The position numbers and the translations under genes were made by a program. Positions 2,841-62,997 of a DNA stretch of 64,000 nucleotides are shown here, in pieces. Each line of letters begins with the position of its first letter. Position 1 is the first letter of the stretch. Location: positions 9,340-73,339 of the forward strand of contig JAUSNF010000021.1 of assembly GCA_030646255.1 (NCBI GenBank). Direction: 5' to 3'. The DNA is from Candidatus Burarchaeum sp. GTDB taxonomy: Archaea > Micrarchaeota > Micrarchaeia > Burarchaeales > Burarchaeaceae. A model generated the notes under the pieces. It had not been told where the DNA came from, ran no database searches, and was given only the letters and a program-made list of their open reading frames with translations.

Positions 2841-2879
2841 AGAGTGGGGAGCGGGTGACTTGCCCTACCTTTTCTTTCC
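2841..2879. repeat. Direct repeat copy B (core GGGGAGCGGGTGACTTGCC), overlaps the Fic stop codon
   Basis: Matches 1364-1401. Confidence 0.5.
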
Positions 2880-3809: not shown

Positions 3810-3816
3810 GATGCTA

Positions 3817-3932
3817 TTAGGTGACTACATTTTATAAACATTTGCATTTAGGTGACCACACTCACGTCGTAAGCGGGCCGGCTTTAGGTGACTACACATA
3901 CGTCGTAAGCAAGCGCGTTTGGGTGACTACAC
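3817..3932. repeat. Four iteron-like direct repeats T(T/A)(A/G)GGTGAC(T/C)ACA, spaced 32-36 bp, plus 2x CGTCGTAAGC
   Basis: Read directly at about 3817, 3848, 3884 and 3919; lies between the divergent fic start and the helicase gene. Confidence 0.7.
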
Positions 3933-4179
3933 ACGCACATTTTGACGCCTAAATGCGTGCCTAAAAAAACGGCGTGGATTTTACCACACATTTTTCCATT
4001 TCAATGTAAGCCAATACATCGCTCATTTCTTCCCCGCCGCGTCCCCTACGCCTTCCTCCCGCTGTCGTAACTCCACCGCCTTTTTAACAATTGACTTTCC
4101 ATACGCATCTGCGATCAGCAGGTGGGATATTGGTCGAGCGGTATGAAGAACCTAGCGTGATTTAGGGGATGGCTTCGTT

Positions 4180-12475: not shown

Positions 12476-13516
12476 ATGATATATATGTACAAGAAAAGAC
12501 TGCAGAACTTTTTCACCAATTCAAAAGCAGACGCGCTCATCCTGCACAACGGCGATTCCGAGGGCTATTTTGACATCAACTACCGCTACTTCATGGGCCT
12601 TGAGTTCGACAACTCCATCCTGCTTGCGCGCCGCACTGGAAGCGCGATGCTGCTCTGCACCTCGCTGAACTATGATTATGCGCGCGAGAAGGCGCGCGTG
12701 CCAGTGGAAAAGATTGAGCGCAAGCTGCTGCCGCAGCAGCTCAAGAAATTCATGGCCAGCTGCAAGAGCATAGGCATAAACAAGCGCTCGCTGCGCCTCT
12801 CAACTTTTGAGGTTTTGAGAAAGGCAGGCAAGGGCAAAAAGTTTATGGATGTGAGCGAGGAGCTGGGCATGAATAGGGCTATGAAGGATGGCGAGGAGCT
12901 CGCGATAATGAAAAAGTGCATTACAAAAACGCGCGGCATTCTCGAATCCGTTGAAGTGCGCGCAGGCATGAAGGAAGAGGACATCCTGAAGAATTTGCGG
13001 GTGCAGGCGCTCGAGGCAGGCGCCGACATTTCCTTCCCGCCCATTGTGCTGAGCGGCCCGAAGGCCAGCATACCCCACGGCGTGACCGGTGGAAGAAGAA
13101 TAGGGGCCAATGAAGCTGTGCTTATAGACTTCGGACTGAAAATGAACGGCTACTGCTCAGACCTGACCAGGTGCTATTTCACGGGCGCGTGCAAGCAGGA
13201 GCGCTCTATTTATGAGAAACTACAGAATGTGCAGGAATCGCTGGCAGACTATGGCCACGCAGGCACGCGCATCTCTGAGTTTGTGAAAAAGTCCGACGCG
13301 CTCATTAGGCAGGCCGGCCTGCCCAAGCTGCCCCACTCAATCGGCCATGGTTTGGGCCTGTATGTGCATGAAGCTCCCTCGCTGTGCGCAGACTCCAAGA
13401 AGAAATTTGAGGCAGGCATGACATTGGCCATAGAGCCCAGCTACTACGGCAAGAAATTCGGCTTGCGCTACGAGAATGATTTTGTGGTAGGCGGAAAGAA
13501 ACTGCGGATGCTCTAG
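12476..13516 (+). CDS. M24-family Xaa-Pro peptidase
   Basis: PHSIGHGLGLYVHEAPS metal-binding motif. Confidence 0.8.
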   Translation: MIYMYKKRLQNFFTNSKADALILHNGDSEGYFDINYRYFMGLEFDNSILLARRTGSAMLLCTSLNYDYAREKARVPVEKIERKLLPQQLKKFMASCKSIGINKRSLRLSTFEVLRKAGKGKKFMDVSEELGMNRAMKDGEELAIMKKCITKTRGILESVEVRAGMKEEDILKNLRVQALEAGADISFPPIVLSGPKASIPHGVTGGRRIGANEAVLIDFGLKMNGYCSDLTRCYFTGACKQERSIYEKLQNVQESLADYGHAGTRISEFVKKSDALIRQAGLPKLPHSIGHGLGLYVHEAPSLCADSKKKFEAGMTLAIEPSYYGKKFGLRYENDFVVGGKKLRML

Positions 13517-13527
13517 CTGCAATCACT

Positions 13528-15714
13528 CTAGTCCAGGAAAGCTTCCGGCCTCGGAGGCTCCTTGGGCTCGCCCTTGCGCTCGCGCACCTGGTAGACAATC
13601 TTCTGCTGCAGCTCCTTGTTCAAAGGCTCGAAGCCTGCGTACTCAGTGTACCAGATTGCGCGGCCCTGCGTGGCGCCGCGGATGCTGTTCGAGAAGCCGA
13701 ACATTTCTGCAACAGGCACCTTGGCATTTACAGTCACAATCTCGCCTTCCTGCTCGATGTTCAGAACCTGCCCGCGCCTTCCCTGTATCTGGCTGATAAT
13801 CGCGCTCATGTAATCCTGCGGCGCCTGCACGAGCAGCTTCTGCTTGGGCTCGAGCAGCTGCACGCCTGCCAAAAGCATGGCAGCATAAATCGGGTTGCGC
13901 ACTGCCGGAATTACCTGCGCAGGCCCCCTGTGAACCGGGTCCTCGTGGATTTTCGCATCAACAACATAGACCATCATGCCCGTAACCTTCTCCTTTGCCA
14001 AGGGGCCTTTCATGCACGCTTCCTCAAATGCCTGTATGACGAGCTCCATAATCTCGTTTATGTACTGCACTCCCTTTGTCGCATCTATCAGTATGTTTGC
14101 GTTGAAAACGTCCGCAATGTTGCGCGCGTCCTCGCGCTCCATGCCAGCTGTGATGAACGGCTCCCAGAAGCCCTTGCCCTTCGGCTTCTTGTTCGGTATC
14201 GTCCCATCAGTAATTGCCTGCAGAAGCGTAGCGGGCATCGGCTCAACAGTCACCTTAATCTTGGTGTGCTTGTTGGGCGACTTGCCCTCAACAGGCCCTG
14301 CCGAGCCTATAATAGTCTCACGGTAAACGACAATCGGGGGCGAGGTCTCGATGGCCACGCCTTTCTCCTTCGTAATCTTGTACTCGATAATCTCAAGGTG
14401 CAGCTCGCCCATGCCAGAGAGCAGGTGCTCGCCGGTCTCCTGGTTGATTTCAACCCTGAGCGTCGGGTCTTCCTTCGCAAGCTGCCTCAGAATCTCAATG
14501 AGCTTCACAAGGTCCGAGGTATTCTTGGCCTCGATAGACTTGGTCACGACAGGCTCGGAATAATGCTTAATTTGCTCGAAAGGATCCATATCTCCCTCGC
14601 TTATGGTCTCGCCCACATACAAATCGTGCAGGCCTATAATCGCCACAATGTTGCCAGCAGGCACCTTTTCTACAAGCACGCGGTCAATGCCCATGTAAAC
14701 GCCAACCTGCTGCACCTTCTCGCTCACGTGCTTGGAGGCGAGCGTCAGCTCCGTTCCCTTTGTAACCGTGCCCGAGAATATGCGCGCAATGCCGACCTCG
14801 CCGGCATGCTCGTCAATAGTGACTCCGAAAATCACACCGCACACCTTGCCCTTTGCGTCAGCCGAGGTCATGCCCTTGCCGTACTCGCTCTGCAAATCTC
14901 CTTTCCAAAGAACTGGAATGCGGTACTTCTGCGCAGTCATCGGGTTGGGAAGGTGCGTAATCGCCATCTCGAGAATAACCTCGTCAATGGGCCCCTTTAC
15001 CATCAGCGTCTTGTGGTCCTGCTTCGAGCAGTAGTCGTAGATGGTCTTGAAGTTCAGCCCGCTGCGCTTCATGTGCGGCACGCTCACGGCCCACTTGTTG
15101 TATGCAGAGCCGAATGTCACATTGCCCTTCTCGGGCGAGATGAGCCACTCCTCCTTGTACTCGCCCGCATAATTCGTGATGAGCTTGTTCACGCCCGCAA
15201 TGATTTTCATGAGCTTTTCCTGCATTGCTTCGGGCGTGAGCTTAAGCTCGTTGATGAGCCTGTCAATCTTGTTGATGAAAAGAGTTGGCTTGGACTTTTC
15301 CTTGAGCGCCTGCCTCACCACCGTCTCGGTCTGCGGCATGATGCCCTCAACTGCGTCCACGACGAGAATTATGCCGTCGACAGCCCTCATCGCCCTCGTC
15401 ACGTGGCCTCCGAAGTCCACGTGCCCGGGCGTATCAATTAAATTAATCAAGTGCGGCTTGCCCTGGTAGTTGAAGCCCAGGGAAATGTTTGCCGCCTTAA
15501 TCGTGATGCCGCGCGCCTGCTCCTGCTCATCATAGTCAAGCACGCGCTGCTCGCCCGCAAGCTCCTTTGAGATGAGCCCTGCGCGGGCAACAAGAGAATC
15601 AGACATCGTGGTCTTGCCATGGTCGACGTGCGCCACAATCGCCATGTTGCGCACCTGCTCGAGGTTGCCCATGATGGACTGCACTTCATCGACAACATAT
15701 TCTTTTCGAACCAT
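13528..15714 (-). CDS. fusA: Elongation factor 2 (aEF-2)
   Basis: AHVDHGKTT G-domain, 728 aa, downstream of S7. Confidence 0.95.
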   Translation of the reverse strand: MVRKEYVVDEVQSIMGNLEQVRNMAIVAHVDHGKTTMSDSLVARAGLISKELAGEQRVLDYDEQEQARGITIKAANISLGFNYQGKPHLINLIDTPGHVDFGGHVTRAMRAVDGIILVVDAVEGIMPQTETVVRQALKEKSKPTLFINKIDRLINELKLTPEAMQEKLMKIIAGVNKLITNYAGEYKEEWLISPEKGNVTFGSAYNKWAVSVPHMKRSGLNFKTIYDYCSKQDHKTLMVKGPIDEVILEMAITHLPNPMTAQKYRIPVLWKGDLQSEYGKGMTSADAKGKVCGVIFGVTIDEHAGEVGIARIFSGTVTKGTELTLASKHVSEKVQQVGVYMGIDRVLVEKVPAGNIVAIIGLHDLYVGETISEGDMDPFEQIKHYSEPVVTKSIEAKNTSDLVKLIEILRQLAKEDPTLRVEINQETGEHLLSGMGELHLEIIEYKITKEKGVAIETSPPIVVYRETIIGSAGPVEGKSPNKHTKIKVTVEPMPATLLQAITDGTIPNKKPKGKGFWEPFITAGMEREDARNIADVFNANILIDATKGVQYINEIMELVIQAFEEACMKGPLAKEKVTGMMVYVVDAKIHEDPVHRGPAQVIPAVRNPIYAAMLLAGVQLLEPKQKLLVQAPQDYMSAIISQIQGRRGQVLNIEQEGEIVTVNAKVPVAEMFGFSNSIRGATQGRAIWYTEYAGFEPLNKELQQKIVYQVRERKGEPKEPPRPEAFLD

Positions 15715-16415: not shown

Positions 16416-16844
16416 CTATCTCTTCGGCTTCTCCTTCTTGCCCAGCCTGAGCTGGTCCAGATCAACGCCATTGACCGCAACTACCTTGTAGCGCACGCCG
16501 GGAATCGAGCCCATCTGCCCGCGCTGCGAGCCGCCCAGCCCCGCCACCAGCACCTCGTCGTGCTCATCAATGAAATTGATGGCCTTGTTGCGCGGTGCGA
16601 ATGCCGTGATTATCCTTCCGTTCTTCGAGAGCTGTACCTTCACGCACTTGATGAGGCCTGAGTGAGGCTGCTTCTGCTCCAAAGCCCTCTTCTCAAGAAC
16701 AATGCCGCGCGCCTGCGGTGCGCCTTCGAGCATGTCGTATTTTTCCTTGAGCCTGAGCTTGCGCCTCTTCCACGGCTTCTTCAGCCAGCGCTGTCGCTTC
16801 CTCTTCCTTTCCAGGTCCCTTGCTCCAAATTCACCACGGCCCAT
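16416..16844 (-). CDS. rps12: Ribosomal protein S12
   Basis: Sequence similarity; conserved cluster. Confidence 0.9.
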
Positions 16845-25390: not shown

Positions 25391-26134
25391 TTAAAGTTGT
25401 TCACCATATTTATCATAATATCTCTTTATAGCCACGTCCATATTCTCCTCTAATTTGAGCTCTGAAATACGCCTTTTCCCTTCCTTATGATACTCCATGA
25501 TCTCCTTCCATTCATCATCCGTAACTTTATCCGTATTCTCCTCCTTGGGGGTCTCTCCCTTTCCTCCTCCTAAAACCGTTGCGATCCCGCTTATGAGCGG
25601 CTCATTTCCGCTTTCCTCTGTTTTAAACCTGTCCCCAATTGGGTGCTCTTTGTCGTATCTTTTTGTAATTGTCTCCATTGTTTTATCGATAAATCCGAAG
25701 AACTCATTTGTTTTTTTATCCTTAAGCTCCCTTTCCTTCTGCTGCAAATTAAGTGCCTCAAGCTTCAGATTGACACCGTCCAGCTTATGTTGAAGCCAAA
25801 TCAGTTCAGCTATCCAATATTTTTTTGGATTATCCTTTGCATAGATTTTCTTGTTTAGCCGTTCTATTTTATCACTCAACTTCTTGCGCTGCCTCTCCCA
25901 AAGTGCGCAGTTGTAGTCCTCGTTCGGTATCTCCTTCTTGACTAGCGCAGGTCCAAGGTCGTGCAATAGCCTGAAATTGAACGCAATCTGGCTCGGCGAG
26001 AACTTAGTCAACAGCGGGTTCCGAGCCACAGTCCTTGCATCTTTTTGCATGGCATTTCTTGCTCTTTGAAAGCTTAAAAACTTTATAATCATGCTCGCCT
26101 GCAAGCGCGCCTTACTTCTTCTGGTCTTCCTCAA
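25391..26134 (-). CDS. Hypothetical protein encoded in an AT-rich insertion
   Basis: GC markedly below the flanking DNA; charged/coiled-coil composition; no recognisable motif. Confidence 0.4.
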   Translation of the reverse strand: MRKTRRSKARLQASMIIKFLSFQRARNAMQKDARTVARNPLLTKFSPSQIAFNFRLLHDLGPALVKKEIPNEDYNCALWERQRKKLSDKIERLNKKIYAKDNPKKYWIAELIWLQHKLDGVNLKLEALNLQQKERELKDKKTNEFFGFIDKTMETITKRYDKEHPIGDRFKTEESGNEPLISGIATVLGGGKGETPKEENTDKVTDDEWKEIMEYHKEGKRRISELKLEENMDVAIKRYYDKYGEQL

Positions 26135-27587
26135 CGATATTCTTTATCATCTTCTGCAGCTTCAGGCGCTTGGCATCATAGGCCTTCTCTTTCAGGTCCG
26201 CATCCTCAACGTTCTCCTTTATCTCAGCAATCTTTCCGCTTTGGGAGGTCACTTCTGCGGAAACCTCGAGCGCAGTCACTGTCTTAGAAAGCAGTCGCAA
26301 CTGCCTCACAAGCCTGTCCCTTTCAACCTCCAGCTCATCTATCGCACTCACAATGTCCGTCACCTGCTGCCTCTTGCCTATCGCACTCTCATACTTCTCC
26401 ACGCCCTTGGTTGCAATGCTCAGCTGGTCCTCTATCTCCTTCTTGCTCTTGTTCAGCGCATTAGTCATCTCATCTGCCAAATCCCTTATCTGCGTGGCCT
26501 CCTGCCTGAAGTTCAGGTCTGCCTTGGCCAGCTGTGAATCATAATCTGTGACACTCCCGATGAGCTTCTTCTGCGCCCGCAGGAGCTCCTCGTACTTGCT
26601 CTCATGCGTCTCGAGCGCCTTTGTTATGGAGTCGCTGCGGTTCGCGAGCAGCCGGCTCTGCTCCCCTATTTCGCTCTCCAGCCTTTCAATATTCTCCTTC
26701 TCCTTCCTGAGCTTTACAAGATTCTCAGCAACCTCGCCGCTCACGAGCGCATCCTTCATCGTGCCCAGCTTCCGGTCCAGGTCAATAACCCTAAACTGCA
26801 TCTTCTCTACGAGCGCCTCAGCCGCGGCCTTCTCGCCCGCCATCTCCTTGGCAGTCTCCTCCAGCCTGTTCATGGCATCGATGGACTCAGTGAGCGCGCC
26901 CTTCTTGTCCGTGCTCTTCTTGAGCTCCTTCTGCAGAGAGGCCTTCATCTCGGTTATGGCTGCAAGCGTCTCATCCAGCTTCTTCCTCGCCTCGACAATC
27001 TCGCCCGCGCGCGCCTTGAGCTCAGGCGACCTTTCAATCTCCTTCACGCGCTTGTTCATCTCCTCGAGCATCTCGCGCTTCAGCTTGATGTCCCGCTCAA
27101 CAGAATTAACGCTCTCGCGCAAATCGGAAATCCGCGCCATCTTCTCGTTGAAAATCTTCTCCTTGTCCTTGTCCACCGCGTGCAGCGCGTCGAGCCTTGA
27201 CCTCAGCTTCTCGGGCAGCTGCGCATCCAGCACGCCCGCGAGCTCGTTCAGCTCCTTGCGCACCATCTGGAGCTCGCCCTCCTTTGCCTTGGCGCGCTCT
27301 ATCAGCCCGCGTATGTCCCTCGTGAGCGACTCCTTCTGCTCGCCTATCTTCGAAATGCTATCCTTCATCTCCTCCTCGGTCGGGCCCCTCCACACCAGGT
27401 AGACGCGCGTGAGCCTGTATTCTAGCTTCAGCACTTTTTCTTCTTCAAGCAGCTTGGCCCACTCTTCTGCAACCTGCGGGGTCACGCCCAAATTAGCGGC
27501 AGCCTCGCTCAGCTCGAGCCTGCCCCTGTCATGCACTATTCTTATGAGTCCGTCTATGCCAGTTGTAATCGAGCCTTCCTGCACCAT
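26112..27587 (-). CDS. Hypothetical N-terminal wHTH plus ~400-aa coiled-coil protein
   Basis: N-terminal ...LSEAAANLGVTPQVAEEWAKLLEEEKVL... HTH-like, then heptad-rich sequence. Confidence 0.45.
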   Translation of the reverse strand: MVQEGSITTGIDGLIRIVHDRGRLELSEAAANLGVTPQVAEEWAKLLEEEKVLKLEYRLTRVYLVWRGPTEEEMKDSISKIGEQKESLTRDIRGLIERAKAKEGELQMVRKELNELAGVLDAQLPEKLRSRLDALHAVDKDKEKIFNEKMARISDLRESVNSVERDIKLKREMLEEMNKRVKEIERSPELKARAGEIVEARKKLDETLAAITEMKASLQKELKKSTDKKGALTESIDAMNRLEETAKEMAGEKAAAEALVEKMQFRVIDLDRKLGTMKDALVSGEVAENLVKLRKEKENIERLESEIGEQSRLLANRSDSITKALETHESKYEELLRAQKKLIGSVTDYDSQLAKADLNFRQEATQIRDLADEMTNALNKSKKEIEDQLSIATKGVEKYESAIGKRQQVTDIVSAIDELEVERDRLVRQLRLLSKTVTALEVSAEVTSQSGKIAEIKENVEDADLKEKAYDAKRLKLQKMIKNIVEEDQKK

Positions 27588-31122: not shown

Positions 31123-31138
31123 AATAAAAAATTAGAAA

Positions 31139-31210
31139 CGCCCCGAGTCGGGTTCGAACCGACGGCCTACTGGTTAACAGCCAGTCGCTCTACCACTGAG
31201 CTATCGGGGC
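31139..31210 (-). tRNA. tRNA-Asn(GUU)
   Basis: Reverse complement folds canonically: GCCCCGA/UCGGGGC acceptor, anticodon loop CUGUUAA, T-loop UUCGAAC; oligo-T downstream. Confidence 0.85.
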
Positions 31211-31368
31211 AAATGGACCAAGGTCCCTTTGCTCAACCTCCTTTTATTTAGCTACGGTTTCTTGCTAGTTTCCCTTTTATTTAGCAAGGTTCCTTGCAGA
31301 CCTCCTTCACCCAACCTCCCTTCGCAGGAAAGGTTCACCCTTCTTTTCCGTCATGCCAAATATATAAA

Positions 31369-40694: not shown

Positions 40695-41522
40695 ATGCAC
40701 AAAACAACCCAAGGTTTTCAAAAAACTCCCCGCATTCCCTCTCCCGCCACGGCACCTCTGGCAGAACCTCTCCAAATCCAACCTACAAGCCAGGAGCTCA
40801 TGTACGGTTGGTTTGCGAAAAAGGGATGGCTCACGAAGCGCGGCAAGCCAAGGGCCCAATGGGCTCAAAATCCCGATGCCAAGGCAGAATCAGTAAGGCA
40901 GTTGGTGGTTGCCCTGAAGAAAGATCCTCGCGACCTCGAATTCAATGACTTCCACTTCAACTACCTCTCCGGCCTTATATCCAACTACTACAACGGCAGC
41001 GTATATGCCGCAGTCTCAGACGCATTCCCCGAGCTCAATATCCTTCCATGGGAACTTATGCAAACGCCCCGCGGTTTCTACGAATCCAAGGAAAACCGCA
41101 TCGCAGCCGTCAAATGGCTAGTTGAAAAACTTGGCAAAGATCCGCGCGACATCACAGTCGAAGACTTCCACTCCAACCGCCTCGGTGGCCTTCTGCTGCG
41201 CAACTACAACGACAGCCCCTATGCCGCAGTCTCAGAAGCATTCCCGGAGCTGAACATACATCCATGGGAAATGTTATCGACGCCCCGCGGTTTCAATGAA
41301 TCCAAGGAAAACCGCATCGCAGCCGTCAAATGGCTAGTTGAAAAACTTGGCAAAGACCCAAGAGACATCACAGTCGAAGATTTCCGCTCCAACCGCCTCG
41401 GAGGCCTCCTCAATGCTTACTATCGCGACAGCCCCTACCTTGCCCTTCTCGAGGCTGGCCTGGTCACGCAAGCAGACGAAGCATATATGAAAAGCCGAGG
41501 CCTAAAACGCGCGACAGCCTAG
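40695..41522 (+). CDS. Protein with a 3x tandem ~72-aa repeat, unknown function
   Basis: Repeats ...PRGFxESKENRIAAVKWLVEKLGKDPRDITVEDFxSNRLGGLL...; a 59-nt perfect DNA repeat at 41082-41140 and 41298-41356. Confidence 0.5.
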   Translation: MHKTTQGFQKTPRIPSPATAPLAEPLQIQPTSQELMYGWFAKKGWLTKRGKPRAQWAQNPDAKAESVRQLVVALKKDPRDLEFNDFHFNYLSGLISNYYNGSVYAAVSDAFPELNILPWELMQTPRGFYESKENRIAAVKWLVEKLGKDPRDITVEDFHSNRLGGLLLRNYNDSPYAAVSEAFPELNIHPWEMLSTPRGFNESKENRIAAVKWLVEKLGKDPRDITVEDFRSNRLGGLLNAYYRDSPYLALLEAGLVTQADEAYMKSRGLKRATA

Positions 41523-52328: not shown

Positions 52329-52393
52329 AACAGTAGCCAAACTCGCCGAAGACATTCAAAAACATATAAATAGGGTAAAGCTCAAATGCAACC

Positions 52394-52780
52394 ATGGCCA
52401 GCGAGTGGTTTTACGGTTTGCTTGTCTTGCTATTGGGTGTTGGACTCATGTACGGCGTCTACCATGCGCTCACCTCTGCTGACACAATACGGCAGGCTTC
52501 CAACTCGCTTCCCTCTTCGCAGTACTCTTCTTCCCCTTCACAAACAGCATCTTCCCAGCCCGTGTGCACCGAAGGCTCCAAAGAATCTTGCATTTTAGCC
52601 AACGGCTGCGATGGCAAGAAAGTCTGTTTCCAGGGCGAATGGACCAGCTGCATTGCGCCCAGGCAGGCCTGCACACCAGGCTCAAAACTAGGGTGCGCAT
52701 TTACAGATGAAAACGGCTGCGGCGTGGGTGAAAAAACCTGCAACGAATGCGGCACAGGCTGGAGTGGCTGTTCTCCATGA
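52394..52780 (+). CDS. Small N-terminally anchored Cys-rich protein, first gene of the pilin-like operon
   Basis: One TM helix, Ser-rich linker, 12 Cys in ~65 aa; stop overlaps the next start (ATGA). Confidence 0.5.
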   Translation: MASEWFYGLLVLLLGVGLMYGVYHALTSADTIRQASNSLPSSQYSSSPSQTASSQPVCTEGSKESCILANGCDGKKVCFQGEWTSCIAPRQACTPGSKLGCAFTDENGCGVGEKTCNECGTGWSGCSP

Positions 52781-53556
52781 GCTCGAAAAAAGGTTTCGTA
52801 TTCACCGTAGATGCCTTCGTAGCCCTCACGCTAGTCGTGCTCGTAATCTTCGTAATAGTCTACCAGCTCAACATACCATCAGCCTTCTTCCCTCAGCAGT
52901 CCCAGACCTACAACTACGCGCGCGACGTCGTGAGCACGCTGAGCACGCTGACAATAAAGAACCTTAAAGATAATAACGATAAGCTCGGCGATCCTCTATA
53001 TGATATGCTGTTGGATTCGGGCTATGCATACGTTCTCGACATCAATGGCGATCCAATACCCTACCTTCCAATCACAACTGAAGACGATCACACCGTTCTT
53101 GAACAGATAGCAAAGGAAGCCCGAATTACTGACAGGAAAGAGGTAGCTAGGCTTATTGCAGTGAATCTCCTTGCTTCCGATGCTGACAACGATTCGACGA
53201 CCTCTGGCAAGCCGATGATTCCTGAGCAGTTCGGAGTTAAGATTAGCATCGAAGGTTATCCGGACGCGGACGTGATAGTACGCGACAAGCCGTTCACAAA
53301 AATCCAGTCTTCCGCTAGCTATGTGTTGATGGGCTACACTGCAAGCCGAGACCCCCGCGTCCCGCGCTATGATTATCCTTCCTATGTTCCGGAAAACAGA
53401 AAATACTGCTCAGACGGAACTTCAGACGGCGCACCTGGAGATATTGACAGCAACCAACCTGCGCTTCCCTGTGCTGTCTTTTTCCAAGACACCAATTATG
53501 AACCAGGGGCAATAACCGAGACGCCACTCATTGTGCGCGTCAGCGTATGGACGTGA
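52777..53556 (+). CDS. Class III signal peptide (type IV pilin-like) protein
   Basis: MSSKKG|FVFTVDAFVALTLVVLVIFVIV: KG cleavage motif plus long hydrophobic helix. Confidence 0.6.
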   Translation: MSSKKGFVFTVDAFVALTLVVLVIFVIVYQLNIPSAFFPQQSQTYNYARDVVSTLSTLTIKNLKDNNDKLGDPLYDMLLDSGYAYVLDINGDPIPYLPITTEDDHTVLEQIAKEARITDRKEVARLIAVNLLASDADNDSTTSGKPMIPEQFGVKISIEGYPDADVIVRDKPFTKIQSSASYVLMGYTASRDPRVPRYDYPSYVPENRKYCSDGTSDGAPGDIDSNQPALPCAVFFQDTNYEPGAITETPLIVRVSVWT

Positions 53557-55430
53557 ACTTCATGATTTTCCACAAATCCCACAAAGCATTCTTCTTCACA
53601 GGCGCAGTGGCCATTCTGCTCGTGCTGCTCATAGCCTCAACCATGACCTGGGTCGCAGTCTCGAACGCGCGCTCCGAGCGCGCGCCGCTCATTACGCAGG
53701 GCCAGCAGGTTCAGAACATGGTGCAGAGCGTCATGGGCTACCAGCGCGCGCTGCAGGTTTCATCGGAAACGGCGTTTTATCAGACCAACCTGCACATGCG
53801 CGCGCAAATTACAGTTCCGAATCCATCAGGCGGCATGACTGCATTAGATGCAAAAAACGAAAGGTATACGTGCATCTATCCTGACATTAGCCCTACTCCT
53901 GATCCGCTATGCGACATAGCCCATTCCAATGATCCGATTTACACGGGAGTAAGAAATAATGTAATCAAGTACTTCTTCTGCGACACATTGGCAACCTATG
54001 CGCAGGGCTGGAGATCCGGGATAAGGAAGCTCGGCAATGAGATGGGGCTTGACGTGTTTATCACTGAAGACCCGGATGCGGAAGAGGTCTGCAAGCTCTC
54101 AATGTCTAATTACAGGACTGTGAAAGTGGAATACAAAGGAACCTACGAAATAAGAGACAAGGCAACCGGCCAGCTGCTTGCCAGCGGCAAGCTGCCCGGC
54201 GAGGCCTACGTGGACATAAACGGCTACGAGGACCCTGCCATATGGGACCGGGCCCGCAAGGATCCGGCTGCGTTCACCGGCGGTCCTATAAGGAACATAT
54301 ACTTCAGCGGCGAGGTCGGGACCAAGCCTACTGTCGGGACCTCGCCTGACGTCCTCAAGCCCGATCCAAAGGTGATTGGCATGCGCGGCAAGGGCTGGTT
54401 CTACGGCAAGACCATCTCTGATACGTTCGACTCAGTCTCCAATCCCGAATGCGTGGACGCTTCAGATCCCAACCCGACGAACCTCAAGAAATGCATAGTC
54501 GTCATATTTGCAGTTTCCTTCTCGGATCCCAATGTCGTCTCGGACCTTAATGCAAACTACGGCGGTGTAATCCTGCTGAACGTGCCGGAGGAAGTTGTAA
54601 GCGACGTTGACTGCGACGGCAACTTAATACCTGATTACGAACTTCATGAGGAAACGGAATACTGCCTTGACTGCCTAACGTACTTGAAGAAGATTGGTAC
54701 TGACGAAATTACAACAAACCCTCTGGACTGCCCCTTCGGGGTGCCCCAACCTCCGCTACCAAACATCCTGGGCCCGAACGGCCTTAACCAGGTTTCGATC
54801 CCGTTCATAGCAGCAGATTACACAGATCCATCCATCAAGGCTTTCGTGGACGATCCAGCAAACCGTTGGAAGCACTACTTCATAGGTTCTAAGAACTGGA
54901 GCAACACAATAGGCATCTCTGAAGTTCACAATATTTGGGACATCGAGAAGCTCAGGGCAACTGCGGTGTGCGGATTCTATATGAATATGAGCGGCTATGT
55001 GGACGTGAACAACCAGCCCATCCCAGATGCGCCGGACTTCCTACAGCGCATGACCATAAGCGGCGACAGCCAGACTTCGCCCAACGGAATCGAAAGCTTC
55101 CTGGTTGGCGTGGGCGTGAATGACATATGGAATGAGGGCGTTCTAATAACCGGCGTCTCGGGAATCTATTCCAACGCGGACCACGCATATCTAGAGCAAC
55201 TCGGTCCTCCGAAAGCCTCACCCGATACCTTCAGGATGAAGGGCATGCCCGGATGCCGCGAGCTGGATCAGTGCTCTTACCTTACGCCAGCGGGCCAGAG
55301 CTCGCCCGTAGGCCACTTTGCAATTGATTACACAGACCACTTGCTCTATGATCCTTTCAACATCTTGCAATGCAATCCCGATTCTGCGACTTCAGGCTAT
55401 CATGCCTCCTGCGACGACACTGCAAACTAG
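53547..55430 (+). CDS. Large (627 aa) pilin-like protein, candidate adhesin/tip subunit
   Basis: N-terminal ...HKSHKA|FFFTGAVAILLVLLIAS; 10-nt overlap with the upstream gene; many Cys and Asn. Confidence 0.5.
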   Translation: MDVNFMIFHKSHKAFFFTGAVAILLVLLIASTMTWVAVSNARSERAPLITQGQQVQNMVQSVMGYQRALQVSSETAFYQTNLHMRAQITVPNPSGGMTALDAKNERYTCIYPDISPTPDPLCDIAHSNDPIYTGVRNNVIKYFFCDTLATYAQGWRSGIRKLGNEMGLDVFITEDPDAEEVCKLSMSNYRTVKVEYKGTYEIRDKATGQLLASGKLPGEAYVDINGYEDPAIWDRARKDPAAFTGGPIRNIYFSGEVGTKPTVGTSPDVLKPDPKVIGMRGKGWFYGKTISDTFDSVSNPECVDASDPNPTNLKKCIVVIFAVSFSDPNVVSDLNANYGGVILLNVPEEVVSDVDCDGNLIPDYELHEETEYCLDCLTYLKKIGTDEITTNPLDCPFGVPQPPLPNILGPNGLNQVSIPFIAADYTDPSIKAFVDDPANRWKHYFIGSKNWSNTIGISEVHNIWDIEKLRATAVCGFYMNMSGYVDVNNQPIPDAPDFLQRMTISGDSQTSPNGIESFLVGVGVNDIWNEGVLITGVSGIYSNADHAYLEQLGPPKASPDTFRMKGMPGCRELDQCSYLTPAGQSSPVGHFAIDYTDHLLYDPFNILQCNPDSATSGYHASCDDTAN

Positions 55431-55438
55431 CTGATATT

Positions 55439-55900
55439 ATGGACTCCCACCGCGCCCAGGCAAGCACCGAGCTCTTCGTGCTCGTAGCCTTCTTCCTAGT
55501 CTTTCTCATACCCATAGTCTTCCTGATGATGAACCTGTCGGGCGAGAAGGCGAACGAGGCGTCGCTGGCGCAGGCGCAGCAGCTGGGCAGGAGAATGACG
55601 GACCTTGCAGACCAGGTTTACATACAGGGCGGCGCGGCGCAAAAGGTGGAAGCGCTCTTCTTCCCGGCAAACATCATCAACCTGAATGTGGGCGGGGACG
55701 CGCCCGATAAGCACGAAATCGTGATAACGGTTTCAACCTACAACGGGGAGACTGACTTGGTGTTCATGACTACTGCACCGCTTTCAACGACTACGGACTG
55801 GACCGGCCAGCCCGACCTTTACCTGGGCGCCGGCATGAAAAAAGTAAGGGTTTACAATGAACCTGCCGATAATTCGGTGGCGATTGACTATGAGCCCTAG
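55439..55900 (+). CDS. Pilin-like protein
   Basis: MDSHRA|QASTELFVLVAFFLVFLIPIVFLMM with Q+1/E+5; the ATG at 55439 is preferred over the track start. Confidence 0.65.
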   Translation: MDSHRAQASTELFVLVAFFLVFLIPIVFLMMNLSGEKANEASLAQAQQLGRRMTDLADQVYIQGGAAQKVEALFFPANIINLNVGGDAPDKHEIVITVSTYNGETDLVFMTTAPLSTTTDWTGQPDLYLGAGMKKVRVYNEPADNSVAIDYEP

Positions 55901-56375
55901 GCTGAAGGCGCAGATGGCGCTTGAATTCCTTTTGCTAGTGTCCTTCTTCCTCCTAGTGCTCGTGATAGCCATGGGCTATTTCGCGAGCCTGCAGCAGACC
56001 GAGATGACTAACCGCGAGTATCTGCTCGGCAGGGAAGTTGCAGCCCGCATTGCGGACGAGGTTCACCTGGCGCTGGTGAGCGGGCCGGGCTATGAAAAGA
56101 CCATTAACCTGCCTCCGACAGTGGCAGGCTCGCCCTACGAGCTGCGCATAACGAACTCCGACCAGTTCGCAACAGCCTACGTGGAAATCAGCTGGACGCG
56201 GGGCGGCACAGACCTGGAATACGCCTTCCCGCTTGCGAGCAGGAGCGTTTACGGCGAGCTGAACGGACTGGGGGTATTTCCACCATTTGCTTTAGATGTT
56301 ACAATACCTTTAACTATAAAGAATGCTGATCTTACAGACAACCGAGTTGGTATAATTGTTTTCCACCAAGACTAA
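55890..56375 (+). CDS. Pilin-like protein
   Basis: MSPRLKA|QMALEFLLLVSFFLLVLVIAM with Q+1/E+5; start at the internal ATG 55890, overlapping the upstream gene by 11 nt. Confidence 0.65.
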   Translation: MSPRLKAQMALEFLLLVSFFLLVLVIAMGYFASLQQTEMTNREYLLGREVAARIADEVHLALVSGPGYEKTINLPPTVAGSPYELRITNSDQFATAYVEISWTRGGTDLEYAFPLASRSVYGELNGLGVFPPFALDVTIPLTIKNADLTDNRVGIIVFHQD

Positions 56376-57087
56376 AACCTCCAAAGGCCAGTTCTTCTCG
56401 CTAGACGTGATAGCGGGCTCGCTGATCTTCATGGTGGCCTTCTTCATCCTTGCCTTCTACTGGCTCAATGCGCAGGCAGGCATGGGCGATAAGACGGATG
56501 ATCTGCAAAGGGAATCCGAGCGCATTGCGGACCAGCTCATGGTGCCCAGCCAGTTTGAAAACATTGAATTTACCGATATGCAAACCGCACTCGGTCCCAT
56601 GTGCCCTAACTATCCCGATATAACGGATACATCGATAAAGCAGCCAGACGACCTCCTCCCTGTCAATTATGTCAGCATAATCAATTCCAAGTCAAGGGTA
56701 CTGCTCACGGCAATGGCATATCTCAACTACACGAGTGCCCTAACTGCGGGAGCAGGAAGCATCAGATTCTACGACTCAATAAAAGAAAAGCTGGGAATTC
56801 CCCGGTATGAGTATTATATTACGCTTGAAGATAGCAATGGGGACGTGCGTACGGATTGCGCAGATTTTGGATTCACGACTACGACCTGTTCTCCTAGCGG
56901 TCCGCCGCCAATGTTGAACTGCGTGGGAGGCGCGCCTCCGCCACCAAATGCCCGCGAAATTGCAAATGCAGAGCGCATAGCGCTGTTTAACCGATACCGG
57001 GGCGAATTTGATCCTGATGTTGCTGGCCAGCTGTACTTTGGAGCACCAGAACTGGTCAAGGTACGCGTTCAGGTGTGGCGTCCATAG
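56356..57087 (+). CDS. Pilin-like protein (TTG start)
   Basis: ...TSKG|QFFSLDVIAGSLIFMVAFFILAFYW; overlaps the upstream gene. Confidence 0.5.
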   Translation: MFSTKTKTSKGQFFSLDVIAGSLIFMVAFFILAFYWLNAQAGMGDKTDDLQRESERIADQLMVPSQFENIEFTDMQTALGPMCPNYPDITDTSIKQPDDLLPVNYVSIINSKSRVLLTAMAYLNYTSALTAGAGSIRFYDSIKEKLGIPRYEYYITLEDSNGDVRTDCADFGFTTTTCSPSGPPPMLNCVGGAPPPPNAREIANAERIALFNRYRGEFDPDVAGQLYFGAPELVKVRVQVWRP

Positions 57088-60379: not shown

Positions 60380-60612
60380 TAATCTAATTAGTGAAAGATA
60401 AGAATTAAAAAGCTTTCTGCGTCCTGCCAGACAGATGCTAGAACGCCCTAGGCCTGTATCCGGATTTGGTCTAGCTACCGCATCAGAAACTAATTAAAAG
60501 ACATACTTCGTAGGATATTGGTTCTGCAAGACAATCAATTTGACTGGGTGAACATATCAAAGCACAATCGGCAATCGAGTACCTGACAATTTATGGCTGG
60601 GCATTCTTATTA

Positions 60613-62997
60613 TTGGTCGTTATGCTCGCAGTATTGTTACAGTTGGGCGTTTTCAAAACAGCAAACTATGTCCAAACTGGAAACGAAGTCGTGGGGTTCA
60701 ACAGCTTCAACATCAACCGAGTTCTTGTGCGCTCATCAGGCGAATTCGAGGTCAGCCTCTCCAACCTGCTCGATGACAAGGTTACTATAACGGAAATCAC
60801 CGTGGACGGCTTGCCCCTAACAAACGTTTTGCCAGCGCTGCCCTTCAACCTTTCAGCGGGCTCGAACGTTACGATAACAGCAGACTCGCCAGTCACAGGC
60901 ACCGCAGGCGCGATTTACAATTCCAAGATAAGCATAAAATTCGACGTTGAGCGCGGCACCTCAGACCACTATGACGCGGGCTTCCTCAAGGGCGAGTTCC
61001 AGCCCGGCGGAATGGGAAAAAAGCAGTGTTCGAACGGGCTCGATGACGACAGCGATACGCTCACCGACTTCCCCGCAGACCCAGGCTGCTCCAATGGGAA
61101 TGATGGAAACGAGCGCAACCCGCTAATAGCGTGCGATGATGAGAAGGACAACGACAATGACGGGCTCAAGGACTATCCTGCAGACCCCGGCTGCTCGAGC
61201 CCCATAGACGGTGATGAGACTGATTCAGTGCTGGAAACAGCGTGCGAGGACGGCGTCAACAACGACAATGACGGCCTCATCGATTATCCTGCAGACCCCG
61301 GCTGCACGGGCGCCTCTGACACGAGCGAGCTCGGCATGGTGGAGTGCGACAATAATGTTGACGATGACACTGACGGCTACACCGACTATCCTGCAGACAC
61401 CGGATGCTCAAGCGCCTCTGACACAAGCGAGCTTGGCACGGTGGAGTGCAACGACGGCAACGACAATGATGCGGACGGCCTCATTGATTATCCTGCGGAC
61501 AGCGACTGCTCGAGCCCCGCCGATGACAGCGAAGCCTCGTCAGCATCCTGCGCTGACACCGACGGCGGCATCAACTACACTACGCTGGGCTCGGTGAGCG
61601 GCTACTACAACGGCATGCCTTACAGCTACACTGACTACTGTGCCGGCTCATACATTGCTGAACACTACTGCGACGGCACGGTGAACAAGACCTCGTGGTA
61701 TACTTGCAATAGCATGGGCACCGGCTACACATGTTCAAACGGCGTCTGCGTGCCTCCTGCGCCTCCGGCGAACTGCACGGACAGCGACGGTGCACTGCCC
61801 ATGGAGCCGTTTTACCCGATAGCATCACAAATAGGCACCGCGGGAACGTGCACTGATGCGAACGGAATTTTCACTGACATCAGCGTCAACTCAACAATCC
61901 TGAACGAGTTCTACTGCGGCCCGACGCAGAACCCGATTTCGTGCCTGAATACCACATGGTACAACTGCCTCTCGCACAACTACACCGGCTCTTCGGGCGG
62001 CAAGTGCATCTGGGAGAACGTGTCAAACAACAACAGCTGCAGTGATTCGGATGGCGGCTTGATATACAATGTCACCGGTGCAACTAGCGGCTACTACAAC
62101 AACACAGCTTACAATTACACCGACAGCTGTTACAATGCGACATGGGTGAATGAGCAGTTCTGCTCTGGGAGCCCATGGCAAGCTATCTGGTCGAACTCGA
62201 CTGTTTACGCATGCAGTAACATGGGCGCGAACTACACATGCTCTGCTGGGAAGTGCGTGTACAGCGCACCTCCGCCGCCCAACATGACAAACTGTACGGA
62301 TACAGACGCTTATCTGCAAGAGGCGCTGAAGTACCCGCTCCAGTCGCAGATAGGCGTGCAGGCGCAGTGCACTGACTACCGTGGCATATATTACGACACG
62401 AGCCAGGATTCCAATTGGACGAGCGAATACCATTGCTACCAATACAACAGCAGCGAAAACAGGTGCGGCTTGACCGTATACAACTGCCTGTCATGGAACT
62501 ACACTGGCTCATCGGGCGGCAAGTGCGTCTCGTCAAACAACAGCTGCAGCGACACTGATGGAGGGCAGATATACAATGTGACTGGAACTGTTAATGGAAC
62601 TTACAATGGCGCAAATTACAGCTACACCGATACCTGTTCATCCGGCACACTCCTGCAGGAAAATTACTGCTCGGGTACCACGAACCACTCGGAGATGTTC
62701 ACCTGCACCAATATGGGCGCGGGCTACACATGCTCGGGCGGCAAGTGCATTCCGCCCGCAGCAAACTGCACTGACACGGACAGCTACCTCCAAGTTGCCA
62801 GGAATTATCCGCTTTCCTCGCAGATAGGCGTGTATGCCAACTGCACGGACAGCGGCGGCGGAACCTATGATGACGCGACTATAAATGCGACAGCGTCTAG
62901 GGAGTTCTACTGCGTTTCCTTGACTTGTTACTACGCGGAATACAACTGCCTGTCATGGAACTACACCGGCTCATCGGGCGGCAAGTGCTACAAGTAG
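60613..62997 (+). CDS. Large secreted Cys-rich modular repeat glycoprotein; real start is probably near 60556
   Basis: 5x C-x-DNDxDGLxDYPADPGC Ca-binding-like repeats, then alternating ~95-aa modules A/B x3; more than 40 N-x-S/T sequons; an in-frame upstream KAQSAIEYL class III signal motif. Confidence 0.6.
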   Translation: MVVMLAVLLQLGVFKTANYVQTGNEVVGFNSFNINRVLVRSSGEFEVSLSNLLDDKVTITEITVDGLPLTNVLPALPFNLSAGSNVTITADSPVTGTAGAIYNSKISIKFDVERGTSDHYDAGFLKGEFQPGGMGKKQCSNGLDDDSDTLTDFPADPGCSNGNDGNERNPLIACDDEKDNDNDGLKDYPADPGCSSPIDGDETDSVLETACEDGVNNDNDGLIDYPADPGCTGASDTSELGMVECDNNVDDDTDGYTDYPADTGCSSASDTSELGTVECNDGNDNDADGLIDYPADSDCSSPADDSEASSASCADTDGGINYTTLGSVSGYYNGMPYSYTDYCAGSYIAEHYCDGTVNKTSWYTCNSMGTGYTCSNGVCVPPAPPANCTDSDGALPMEPFYPIASQIGTAGTCTDANGIFTDISVNSTILNEFYCGPTQNPISCLNTTWYNCLSHNYTGSSGGKCIWENVSNNNSCSDSDGGLIYNVTGATSGYYNNTAYNYTDSCYNATWVNEQFCSGSPWQAIWSNSTVYACSNMGANYTCSAGKCVYSAPPPPNMTNCTDTDAYLQEALKYPLQSQIGVQAQCTDYRGIYYDTSQDSNWTSEYHCYQYNSSENRCGLTVYNCLSWNYTGSSGGKCVSSNNSCSDTDGGQIYNVTGTVNGTYNGANYSYTDTCSSGTLLQENYCSGTTNHSEMFTCTNMGAGYTCSGGKCIPPAANCTDTDSYLQVARNYPLSSQIGVYANCTDSGGGTYDDATINATASREFYCVSLTCYYAEYNCLSWNYTGSSGGKCYK

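Follow-up and report, generated by a model that had tools for sequence, protein, structure and literature searches.

Candidatus Burarchaeum (Micrarchaeota, DPANN) is a tiny symbiotic archaeon. A 64-kb stretch of its DNA, analysed as a whole and referred to below as the window, contains a six-gene operon in which five products have pilin-like N-termini. The question raised by this locus is what these proteins could assemble into, and with which machinery. The original prediction, a minor-pilin or pseudopilin-like set with its motor encoded elsewhere, is supported by the conservation of the putative cleavage sites, by Pfam matches and by the gene linkage seen in Ca. Gugararchaeum and Halobaculum.

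Operon structure and genomic setting

The genes, designated G1–G6, are closely spaced on the + strand across positions 52394–57087, and an ORF check recovered all six at the starts first given for them (52394, 52777, 53547, 55439, 55890 and 56356). The features of the locus are as follows, with a slash marking the putative cleavage site.

52364–52372, + strand: TATA-box-like element ATATAAATA, read from the sequence, 21 nt before the G1 ATG
52394–52780, + strand: G1, 128 aa, membrane-anchored (ORF; orthologue alignment)
52777–53556, + strand: G2, 259 aa, class III-like, MSSKKG/FVFTVDAFVAL; ATGA overlap with G1
53547–55430, + strand: G3, 627 aa, class III-like, ..HKSHKA/FFFTGAVAIL (ORF; the NCBI record starts at M6)
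55439–55900, + strand: G4, 153 aa, class III with Q+1/E+5, MDSHRA/QASTELFVLVAFF (ORF; orthologue motifs)
55890–56375, + strand: G5, 161 aa, class III with Q+1/E+5, MSPRLKA/QMALEFLLLV; DUF7266-like
56356–57087, + strand: G6, 243 aa, class III-like, ..KTSKG/QFFSLDVIAG, TTG start; DUF7287-like
60544–62997, + strand: Cys-/Asp-rich repeat protein of about 814–817 aa with a class III N-terminus, (M)KA/QSAIEYLTIYGWAFLLLVV; beyond the operon span

An overlap had been claimed for every junction; this holds for four of the five (4, 10, 11 and 20 nt), while G3 and G4 are separated by an 8-nt gap if the G4 start is taken as 55439, and a short gap is present here in orthologues too. The operon lies, as had been noted, between the exosome cluster and ald: the exosome superoperon, Pcc1, prefoldin beta and DHH genes form the upstream flank and alanine dehydrogenase the downstream one. 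To judge from the usual archaeal promoter layout, the element at 52364–52372 is the probable operon promoter, from which transcripts would have little or no leader.

Class III-type N-termini

The N-terminal plan read originally in G2–G6, a short basic leader, a [KR][GA] motif and a hydrophobic helix of about 20 residues, is present in all five, with a Kyte–Doolittle window of 2.5–3.2 after each motif; the two members said to carry Q+1/E+5 are G4 and G5. Near-invariant across diverged orthologues are K/R at –2, G/A at –1, Q or F at +1, and E+5 or D+6. The counts are F+1 in 27/30 and D+6 in 26/30 for G2 (consensus [RK][AG]/F[IV]FS.DAF); Q+1 and E+5 each in 44/47 for G4 and in 52/54 for G5; and G–1, Q+1 and D+6 each in 57/58 for G6. 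G3 has no acidic residue past the predicted cleavage site, and its orthologues conserve F+1 (34/42) and F+3 (36/42) without a conserved acid. The conserved residues are concentrated ahead of the hydrophobic segment, not behind it, and the shortest leaders (MRA/ or MKG/) comprise three residues. The conserved pattern, together with such short leaders, points to class III and not Sec signal peptides.

A six-frame scan of the whole window for [KR][GA] and a hydrophobic helix close to an ORF start gave 7–8 matches, five of which are G2–G6 consecutively and one the real class III protein at 60544. Since the motifs are kept in tens of diverged orthologues, the N-terminal pattern of G2–G6 is far beyond chance.

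Protein families of the operon

The first gene had been described as encoding a membrane-anchored protein with 12 cysteines. G1 does have an N-terminal hydrophobic helix, which lacks a class III motif and is followed by a Ser/Pro-rich linker and a domain of about 70 aa outside the cell. The cysteines, however, number 11 and not 12; they lie in this domain and are invariant in five orthologues. No match to G1 was found in Pfam or NCBIfam. An HMM of G1 detects a copy directly upstream of the other five genes (the pentad) in locus L015 and in 11 of the 31 loci from metagenomes; G1 is an accessory partner of the pentad.

G2, which ends in VRVSVWT, has no robust Pfam match. The length of 627 aa claimed for G3 is correct for the ORF, while the NCBI record, starting at M6, gives 622 aa. 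Its extracellular part is large and Cys-rich, with the conserved motifs GxGWFYG, CGYYV, APSFLQR, GIETF and KGMPGC. A homologue search yielded neither a Pfam family nor a PDB entry related in sequence. G3 belongs to an orphan family, and its AF2 model (pLDDT 41) is unusable.

G4 and G5 are paralogues, as judged from the cross-matching of their HMMs, and orthologues of both match Pfam Class_IIIsignal (4/7 in the case of G4). G5 itself reaches 20.1 bits against this family (cut-off 23.7) and 25.1 bits against DUF7266 (E 1.6e-5, cut-off 27.6); precomputed Pfam annotation tags the exact G5 protein as PF23928.2. For G6, which ends in KVRVQVWRP, a profile search retrieved 322 clusters at 50% identity, and DUF7287 is matched by 5/7 orthologues (best E 5e-7). 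The AF2 model of G6 (pLDDT 79) comprises a long N-terminal helix (16–61) and an alpha/beta domain.

Conservation of the gene set

All six genes are syntenic in Burarchaeales relatives, at 33–55% identity, and a distant Micrarchaeia MAG has the complete set too, at another chromosomal site. Wherever a metagenomic locus includes enough upstream DNA, the pentad is found in the order G2-G3-G4-G5-G6 (31/31 loci). It is kept across the phylum Micrarchaeota, almost always apart from a pilus motor.

This fixed order bears on the alternative that the products are ordinary Sec-secreted or unrelated membrane proteins which are neighbours by accident. The window's own proteins do score under the Pfam curated (gathering) cut-offs, as such proteins might; however, the placement of conservation before the hydrophobic segment, the three-residue leaders, the constancy of the five-gene order and the linkage of these families with T4P genes elsewhere make an accidental neighbourhood scarcely conceivable.

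Pilus machinery in the window and in relatives

The original prediction stated that the window encodes no ATPase, platform protein or prepilin peptidase, and inspection agrees. In the 64 kb, neither a T2SSE ATPase nor a T2SSF platform was found by Pfam on the large ORFs or by phmmer with an ATPase and a TadC from Micrarchaeota as the query pair. The sole multi-TM ORF is SpoIIM-like, which leaves no candidate there for a prepilin peptidase. Likewise, the 342 kb around 31 related pentads yielded no secretion ATPase, platform or peptidase. This is less surprising than first implied, because the literature describes pilin sets of archaea that are encoded in trans (PMC4858521). Type IV pilus genes have been described in genomes of Burarchaeum's lineage (PMC8561730), and two T4P systems with a single FlaK are reported for the cultured Micrarchaeon Mia14 (PMC5498576).

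Use of a T4P machine is deduced, since no machinery lies near the pentads, solely from Gugararchaeum paralogues and haloarchaeal relatives. In Ca. Gugararchaeum (locus L014), G4-, G5- and G6-like genes (HMM E 1.6e-11, 1.3e-7 and 3.8e-14), paralogous to those of the pentad, are followed by two more class III-like genes. Next come T2SSE, two T2SSF genes and a gene for a pilin scoring 27.9 bits against Class_IIIsignal, over the 23.7 cut-off. In Halobaculum halophilum, plasmid NZ_CP058531 has the order ATPase, TadC, DUF7287, DUF7288, DUF7261, DUF7266, DUF7289, with the five coupled DUF genes directly downstream of the pilus ATPase and platform. An unusually large ATPase (about 990 aa) and a pilin set of its own suggest that this is a haloarchaeal PilB4-type system, a locus type assigned to euryarchaeal clade 2 (Makarova et al. 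2016, Fig. 4B).

The consistent absence of machinery near the pentad would also suit a static, non-filamentous envelope or host-contact complex of G1–G6, anchored by uncleaved N-termini and needing no ATPase, comparable with membrane-anchored ArlF/ArlG of the archaellum. The recurrence of G1, a plain membrane-anchored Cys-rich protein, as a partner is consistent with this, as is the G6 ectodomain, which is closer to Cache/PAS-like extracellular sensor domains than to solved pilins. Nevertheless, the near-invariant G/A–1, Q/F+1 and acid, combined with very short leaders, constitute a peptidase recognition signature, and ATPase and platform genes directly adjoin both the paralogues and the haloarchaeal relatives; uncleaved anchors are therefore unlikely.

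Proposed role

G2–G6 are fairly likely to be a pilin set assembled in trans; the set is probably a priming or tip complex of minor pilins, in which G3 would be the cap or adhesin. Each protein would be inserted in the membrane by its N-terminal helix, and a FlaK/PibD-type prepilin peptidase encoded elsewhere would cut off the leader of 3–13 residues after the conserved G/A. A PilB-type ATPase and a TadC-type platform, also encoded elsewhere, would then assemble the mature subunits via their hydrophobic N-terminal helices. The pentad would form a low-copy priming or tip complex, as with bacterial minor pilins, in which G3 would be the large acid-less capping or adhesive subunit, on a shaft built from a major pilin encoded elsewhere. 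A low-copy complex is the most likely arrangement given five distinct genes in fixed order, their tight packing with overlaps at four of five junctions, and a large, acid-less G3.

Alternatively, the pentad could be a complete filament kit. A dedicated fibre would then have G4 or G5 as its major subunit and the rest as accessory pilins, with assembly still by a motor encoded in trans. G4 and G5 are small and the nearest members to Class_IIIsignal, the window has no other small major pilin gene, and the PilB4-type set is described as holding its own predicted major pilin (PMC4858521). On the other hand, the tight packing with overlapping junctions suggests similar expression of all five genes, while a shaft subunit would normally be needed in large excess, and the Gugararchaeum locus has a separate small pilin over the Class_IIIsignal threshold after TadC, besides its G4/G5/G6-like genes. 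A domain homologous to that small pilin also occurs in the window, at residues 31–116 of the 60544–62997 protein (E 7e-4). The filament kit is consequently possible but doubtful.

The 60544–62997 protein, whose start codon is probably a non-canonical ATC at 60556, has no Pfam match and has an orthologue in syntenic position in loci L002 and L017. It is likely a modular pilin-adhesin and is possibly associated with the operon. The G1–G6 set is a good candidate for the surface or host-contact fibre of these cells.

Comparison with known systems

Across the archaea, class III signal peptides are widely found on binding proteins that are not pilins (preprint 10.64898/2026.04.22.720090), and the Sulfolobus bindosome, formed by class III-anchored sugar-binding proteins, shares with the pentad class III-type N-termini on non-classical pilins and machinery in trans. 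A bindosome-like assembly for nutrient uptake is nonetheless very improbable here: none of G1–G6 has a solute-binding-protein domain, no ABC transporter adjoins the operon, and the families, except the orphan G3, are small and pilin-sized.

The Epd pilus of Methanococcus maripaludis (archaeal clade 1/System 1) resembles the set at the level of N-terminal and gene features: G4 and G5 share Q+1, the acidic +5 and Class_IIIsignal (UPF0333-type) N-termini, several minor pilins accompany a large adhesin-like class III protein, and the Gugararchaeum locus has two platform genes beside the ATPase (PMC4858521; preprint 10.64898/2026.04.22.720090). However, the Epd genes are in a single locus together with their ATPase and a dedicated peptidase, EppA, and the pentad has neither nearby.

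The bacterial minor (pseudo)pilins GspH-I-J-K (T2SS), FimU-PilVWX with PilY1 (T4aP) and ComGD-GG offer an analogy in the proposed working principle only, not family membership. Here too, the genes for four or five distinct pilin-like proteins are grouped, often away from the motor. GspK, the largest T2SS pseudopilin, lacks the conserved acidic residue, as does the biggest member of the pentad. Sequence or fold similarity to the G1–G6 set is not detectable, and the pentad differs in having Q or F at +1 and D+6 in two members.

The haloarchaeal PilB4-type system, the function of which is still unknown (PMC12542753, PMC4371748), differs in several respects. The Micrarchaeota set is apart from ATPase/TadC genes in every pentad locus examined, its G3 is far larger (500–900 aa) and belongs to an orphan family, G1 has no counterpart, and +1 is F instead of Q in G2 and G3. 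No significant match to DUF7288, DUF7261 or DUF7289 was obtained with G2, G3 or G4, and profile comparison of G2, G4, G5 and G6 with single haloarchaeal sequences gave no significant result. Both sets, however, consist of five distinct, tightly coupled class III-like genes in a common circular order, with DUF7287 matched by G6 and DUF7266 by G5. Their features also correspond position by position: one member combines Q..D with RVW at the C-terminus, another an MRA/ leader with C-terminal VVW, and the largest lacks an acidic residue. As part of the same favoured reading, and with the same fair likelihood, the pentad would be the Micrarchaeotal counterpart of the Halobaculum set DUF7287-DUF7288-DUF7261-DUF7266-DUF7289.

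Organisation of the gene cluster

Core chromosomal genes fill the window: it carries those of split RpoB, RpoA, EF-2, SMC, topoisomerase VI and TFB as well as the exosome superoperon. The six co-directional genes of the original prediction were all found as open reading frames on the forward strand.

Genes of the cluster and the upstream element (window positions; the arrow marks the predicted cleavage site and +1 is the residue following it)
52364–52372: TATA-like box, ATATAAATA, 21 nt upstream of G1, read from the sequence
52394–52780, + strand: G1, Cys-rich membrane-anchored protein
52777–53556, + strand: G2, N-terminus KKG↓FVFTVD
53547–55430, + strand: G3, large subunit, N-terminus HKA↓FFFTGA
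55439–55900, + strand: G4, N-terminus HRA↓QASTE
55890–56375, + strand: G5, N-terminus LKA↓QMALE
56356–57087, + strand: G6, N-terminus SKG↓QFFSLD

Every junction had been described as overlapping. This holds for overlaps of 4, 10, 11 and 20 nt; G3 and G4 are separated by a gap of 8 nt. The count of 12 cysteines given for G1 has to be corrected to 11. The public record starts G3 at M6, which shortens the protein from 627 to 622 aa. G3 shows 100% identity to a hypothetical protein from a MAG of Candidatus Burarchaeum sp. (Micrarchaeota, DPANN).

The gap between the DHH gene and G1 measures 65 nt (52329–52393) and contains the TATA-like box. In three related loci (L001, 8527–8844; L002, 8672–8953; L003, 6344–6610), a small MGMT-like gene (Pfam DNA_binding_1, 88–105 aa) is located between the DHH gene and G1; it is absent from the window and from the related locus L005, which have a short intergenic gap instead. 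Elsewhere in the window, a gene for a Fic/DOC-family protein (2865–3809, − strand) adjoins that of a PIF1-like helicase (4180–5682). This stretch (2865–5682) has a lower G+C content (0.47 at 4–6 kb) and may represent a mobile or defence-related insertion. Two open reading frames, 26112–27587 (− strand, 491 aa) and 40695–41522 (+ strand, 275 aa), have no Pfam matches or spurious ones. The sole RNA gene detected in the 64 kb, tRNA-Asn(GTT) (31138–31211, − strand), lies directly downstream of the gene of a SpoIIM-like membrane protein.

Class III signal signatures

As had been proposed, G2–G6 (the pentad) begin with class III-like sequences, in which about 20 highly hydrophobic residues come after [KR][GA] (hydrophobicity windows 2.5–3.2). 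A six-frame motif scan of the whole window returned only 7–8 sites, five of which belong to the consecutive genes G2–G6. K or R at −2 and G or A at −1 are kept in 30–58 distinct orthologue N-termini per family.

Family motifs around the cleavage site and their conservation among orthologues
G2: [RK][AG]↓F[IV]FS.DAF; F+1 in 27/30, D+6 in 26/30
G3: [KR]G↓F[LF]F; acidic residue not conserved
G4: [KR][GA]↓Q..xE; Q+1 in 44/47, E+5 in 44/47
G5: [RK][GA]↓Q.AxEF; Q+1 in 52/54, E+5 in 52/54
G6: KG↓Q[YF]FS.D; 57/58 each, counts partly biased by the retrieval pattern

The two members credited with Q+1/E+5 are G4 and G5, and both residues are conserved across the orthologue N-termini. G4 and G5 carry their acidic residue as E+5, G2 and G6 as D+6; it is lacking in G3. 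Sec signal peptides were considered for G2–G6 and rejected, since the constraint is concentrated just ahead of the hydrophobic helix and some orthologues have leaders of only MRA↓ or MKG↓, a pattern typical of class III (prepilin-type) signals. The family alignments show the putative cleavage region to be conserved, including that of several orthologues whose N-termini are cut short by public gene calls. A possible but less likely alternative is that G1–G6 constitute an uncleaved membrane complex. No candidate for a prepilin peptidase was found in the window, where the single multi-TM open reading frame is SpoIIM-like.

Family assignment and structure

Only G5 among the cluster proteins of the window matches Pfam, and both scores are just under the gathering thresholds: 25.1 bits for DUF7266 (PF23928, threshold 27.6) and 20.1 bits for Class_IIIsignal (PF04021, threshold 23.7). 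Window G4 gave no match to Class_IIIsignal at E ≤ 1, and window G6 gave none to DUF7287 (PF23958, threshold 27 bits). Among the orthologues, DUF7287 is matched by five of seven G6 proteins (best E 5e-7), Class_IIIsignal at E ≤ 1 by five of seven G5 proteins (best E 6e-4) and four of seven G4 proteins (best E 6e-3), and DUF7266 by three of seven G5 proteins. In precomputed Pfam annotation (version.2 models), PF23928.2 is assigned to window G5 and PF23958.2 to four of the G6 orthologues. No Pfam family was found for G1, G2 or G3, and an NCBIfam search produced no match. PDB sequence searches with the profiles of G3, G5 and G6, with a broad G3 profile and with an 817-aa protein encoded downstream of the cluster yielded nothing credible. 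According to an hhalign comparison, the G2 and G6 profiles are weakly similar, in the N-terminal part only.

Structure prediction, suggested for each subunit, was successful for G6 (pLDDT 79) and unsuccessful for G3 (AF2, seven sequences, pLDDT 41). The G6 model comprises a 45-residue N-terminal helix (16–61) followed by an alpha/beta domain; a Foldseek search of the PDB with this model found no match. A bindosome, one of the structures initially proposed, was rejected, as no SBP domain is present in G1–G6 and no ABC transporter is adjacent to the cluster.

Conservation of the pentad

A word-indexed homologue search with the 627-aa G3, as had been recommended, detected seven relatives at 33–38% identity. 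They show the same six-gene arrangement wherever the contig suffices, and in most of them the cluster comes after the exosome superoperon, Pcc1, prefoldin and DHH genes. Three such searches returned 7, 16 and 17 matches, covering close Micrarchaeota relatives only, and a scan of GTDB genomes found only five loci. A G6 profile search of 1.84 billion representatives retrieved 322 clusters at 50% identity, the named members of which are all Micrarchaeota or Micrarchaeia; a match to a plant multicystatin was judged to be probably spurious. One distant Micrarchaeia MAG carries the complete G1–G6 set beside the EF-2/RNA polymerase operon, and in another G2–G6 are convergent with the exosome operon.

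From a metagenome scan that yielded 173 relatives, 80 loci were kept. All 31 of these loci in which 3.8 kb or more precede G6 contain the ordered pentad G2-G3-G4-G5-G6, and in 11 of the 31, G1 comes immediately before it. The idea that the pentad always accompanies the exosome operon was rejected; the two are linked in Burarchaeales only, plus two further loci (L016 and L052) in convergent orientation.

Pilus machinery

The reported absence of motor genes from the window was borne out: neither a pilus ATPase (T2SSE) nor a platform protein (T2SSF) was found by Pfam searches of the large open reading frames or by phmmer, for which a paired ATPase and TadC from Micrarchaeota served as queries. 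ATPase, TadC and KaiC queries likewise had zero matches in the 342 kb flanking the 31 related pentad loci; the ATPase query is sensitive, picking up homologues from haloarchaea and bacteria at E < 1e-42. A possible but less likely reading of the pentad is a self-contained filament kit. In Ca. Gugararchaeum, two related loci are present.

L014, 7328–16318 (CABMDC010000016.1): pilus locus of Ca. Gugararchaeum adminiculabundum

This is a complete type IV pilus locus. It opens with a KaiC-like ATPase, followed by a G4-like protein (471 aa, with MG2-, filamin- and Fn3-like domains), a G5-like protein, a G6-like protein that matches DUF7287 and two further class III-like proteins (KKG↓LVISFD and KKG↓FVFTI), and ends with a T2SSE ATPase, two T2SSF platform proteins and a small pilin scoring above the Class_IIIsignal threshold. 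The order of its pilin-like genes, 4-5-6-2-3, is a cyclic permutation of that in the window. In the second locus (L008/L013, 8245–10591, CABMDC010000012.1), G4, G5 and G6 form a detached trio that lacks G2 and G3 and is divergent from an adjoining DsbA/thioredoxin-like gene; this neighbour hints that disulfide formation may matter for these Cys-containing surface proteins.

The cultured Micrarchaeon Mia14 possesses two T4P systems and one FlaK prepilin peptidase (PMC5498576). Type IV pilus genes have been reported for the present lineage in genome descriptions (PMC8561730), the supplementary files of which contain no per-genome list of FlaI/J/K. G2–G6 are best interpreted as type IV pilin-like subunits, and their processing and assembly would depend on a peptidase and an ATPase/platform encoded in trans.

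A further class III-type protein

60544–62997, + strand: class III-type protein of about 814–817 aa, 3.4 kb downstream of the cluster

The N-terminus of this protein reads (M)KA↓QSAIEYLTIYGWAFLLLVV. Of its repeats, five are Asp-rich ('DYPADPGCS') and three are large and Cys-rich; N-x-S/T sequons are numerous, and there is no match in Pfam. Residues 31–116 resemble the small pilin beside the Gugararchaeum ATPase/TadC genes (E 7e-4), and an orthologue occupies the syntenic position in L002/L017. The protein is likely to be a modular pilin-adhesin using the same machinery. No ATG, GTG or TTG occurs between the upstream stop and the Q+1 codon (window 60541–60562; L002 ~16463–16510), and the only conserved start candidate is ATC in the window and ATA in L002, giving the three-residue leader of MKA↓Q. 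Judging from these sequences, the gene may use a conserved non-canonical start codon; both the open reading frame listing and the JGI call start it inside or after the signal peptide.

Possible function

By analogy, the pentad most likely forms a priming or tip complex of low copy number, in which G3 would be the cap or adhesin; the fixed order, the tight packing, the five distinct families and the one large acid-less member argue for this role. The likeness to the bacterial GspHIJK and FimU-PilVWX complexes is one of analogy, not homology.

Micrarchaeota and other DPANN archaea cannot do without physical contact to their host cells, and microscopy has revealed pili-like connections. To our knowledge, the proteins making this contact are unknown. 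That the whole G1–G6 module is a Micrarchaeota-specific host-contact device is a speculative and rather unlikely reading. In such a device, the tip complex would present the orphan Cys-rich G3 (500–900 aa) as the factor by which the host cell is recognised or penetrated, with G1 as a dedicated membrane partner, and whichever T4P motor of the cell is active would drive the module in trans. On this reading, the frequent siting of the module by core information-processing operons (exosome, EF-2/RNA polymerase) would be a sign of expression that is constitutive and essential in an obligate symbiont.

What emerges is a set of five pilin-like proteins that spans the phylum, keeps a fixed order and is recognisable by clear sequence signatures, the new elements being the orphan large subunit G3 and the recurrent Cys-rich partner G1. 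In cultivated Micrarchaeota, these proteins offer definite targets for proteomics, for labelling in cryo-ET and for structure prediction.

Comparison with haloarchaeal and other known systems

Archaeal loci with several pilins have been described before, as have pilin sets that lie away from their motor genes (PMC4858521; preprint 10.64898/2026.04.22.720090), so the pentad is not a new kind of system. A literature search found no paper on the Micrarchaeotal module or on the DUF72xx families (DUF7261–7289). The ATPase of the Gugararchaeum pilus locus is flanked by two T2SSF genes. Two TadC genes beside the ATPase are one mark of the Epd-type (clade 1/System 1) pilus, along with EpdA–E homologues and a dedicated EppA peptidase, but clade 2 loci may likewise carry two TadC genes (PMC4858521).

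On a plasmid of Halobaculum halophilum, genes for an oversized ATPase (~990 aa) and TadC are followed by five coupled genes in the order DUF7287, DUF7288, DUF7261, DUF7266, DUF7289. In our reading, this locus is the PilB4-type system described by Makarova et al. (PMC4858521), the function of which is still unknown (PMC4371748, PMC12542753). DUF7287 has a class III-like site, SRA↓QTTVDF, and the C-terminus ..VRSW, and parallels G6 in Q..D (C-terminus of G6 RVQVWRP). DUF7288, with MRA↓QAHTLE and the C-terminus VVVWRI, parallels G2, many orthologues of which have an MRA↓ leader (C-terminus of G2 VRVSVWT). DUF7261, with ERA↓QMFLIGG, and G3 are each the largest of their set and lack the acidic residue.

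Pilin-like genes are often truncated or missed in public annotation. An unannotated DUF7287-like open reading frame (..TRA↓QASQIDF..., C-terminal end VVIRVWS) lies between the TadC and DUF7288 genes of Salinibaculum sp. KK48 plasmid NZ_CP129994.1 (L097, ~13080–13786), the annotated GTG start of a DUF7287 gene (L098, 12899) excludes the upstream SRA↓Q class III site, and the JGI calls for G4 and G5 of L002 are further cases.

The PilB4-type set differs from the pentad in that only two of its five families are detectable by sequence in the latter, which also has no adjacent ATPase. Statistical support for the haloarchaeal link comes, at the level of sequence, from G5 and G6 only; G2, G3 and G4 have no sequence match to the PilB4-type families. 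Comparisons of the G2, G4, G5 and G6 profiles with single haloarchaeal DUF proteins (hhalign) were not significant, and collinear orthology with the haloarchaeal pentad is therefore put forward as a hypothesis. The two sets run parallel in circular order (G6, G2, G3, G4, G5), and this parallel of order and features is suggestive only. Two independent genomic contexts, those of Gugararchaeum and Halobaculum, place relatives of the pentad proteins beside type IV pilus machinery, and the comparison suggests that the pentad of Micrarchaeota and the PilB4-type set of haloarchaea are two forms of one older module with five subunits.
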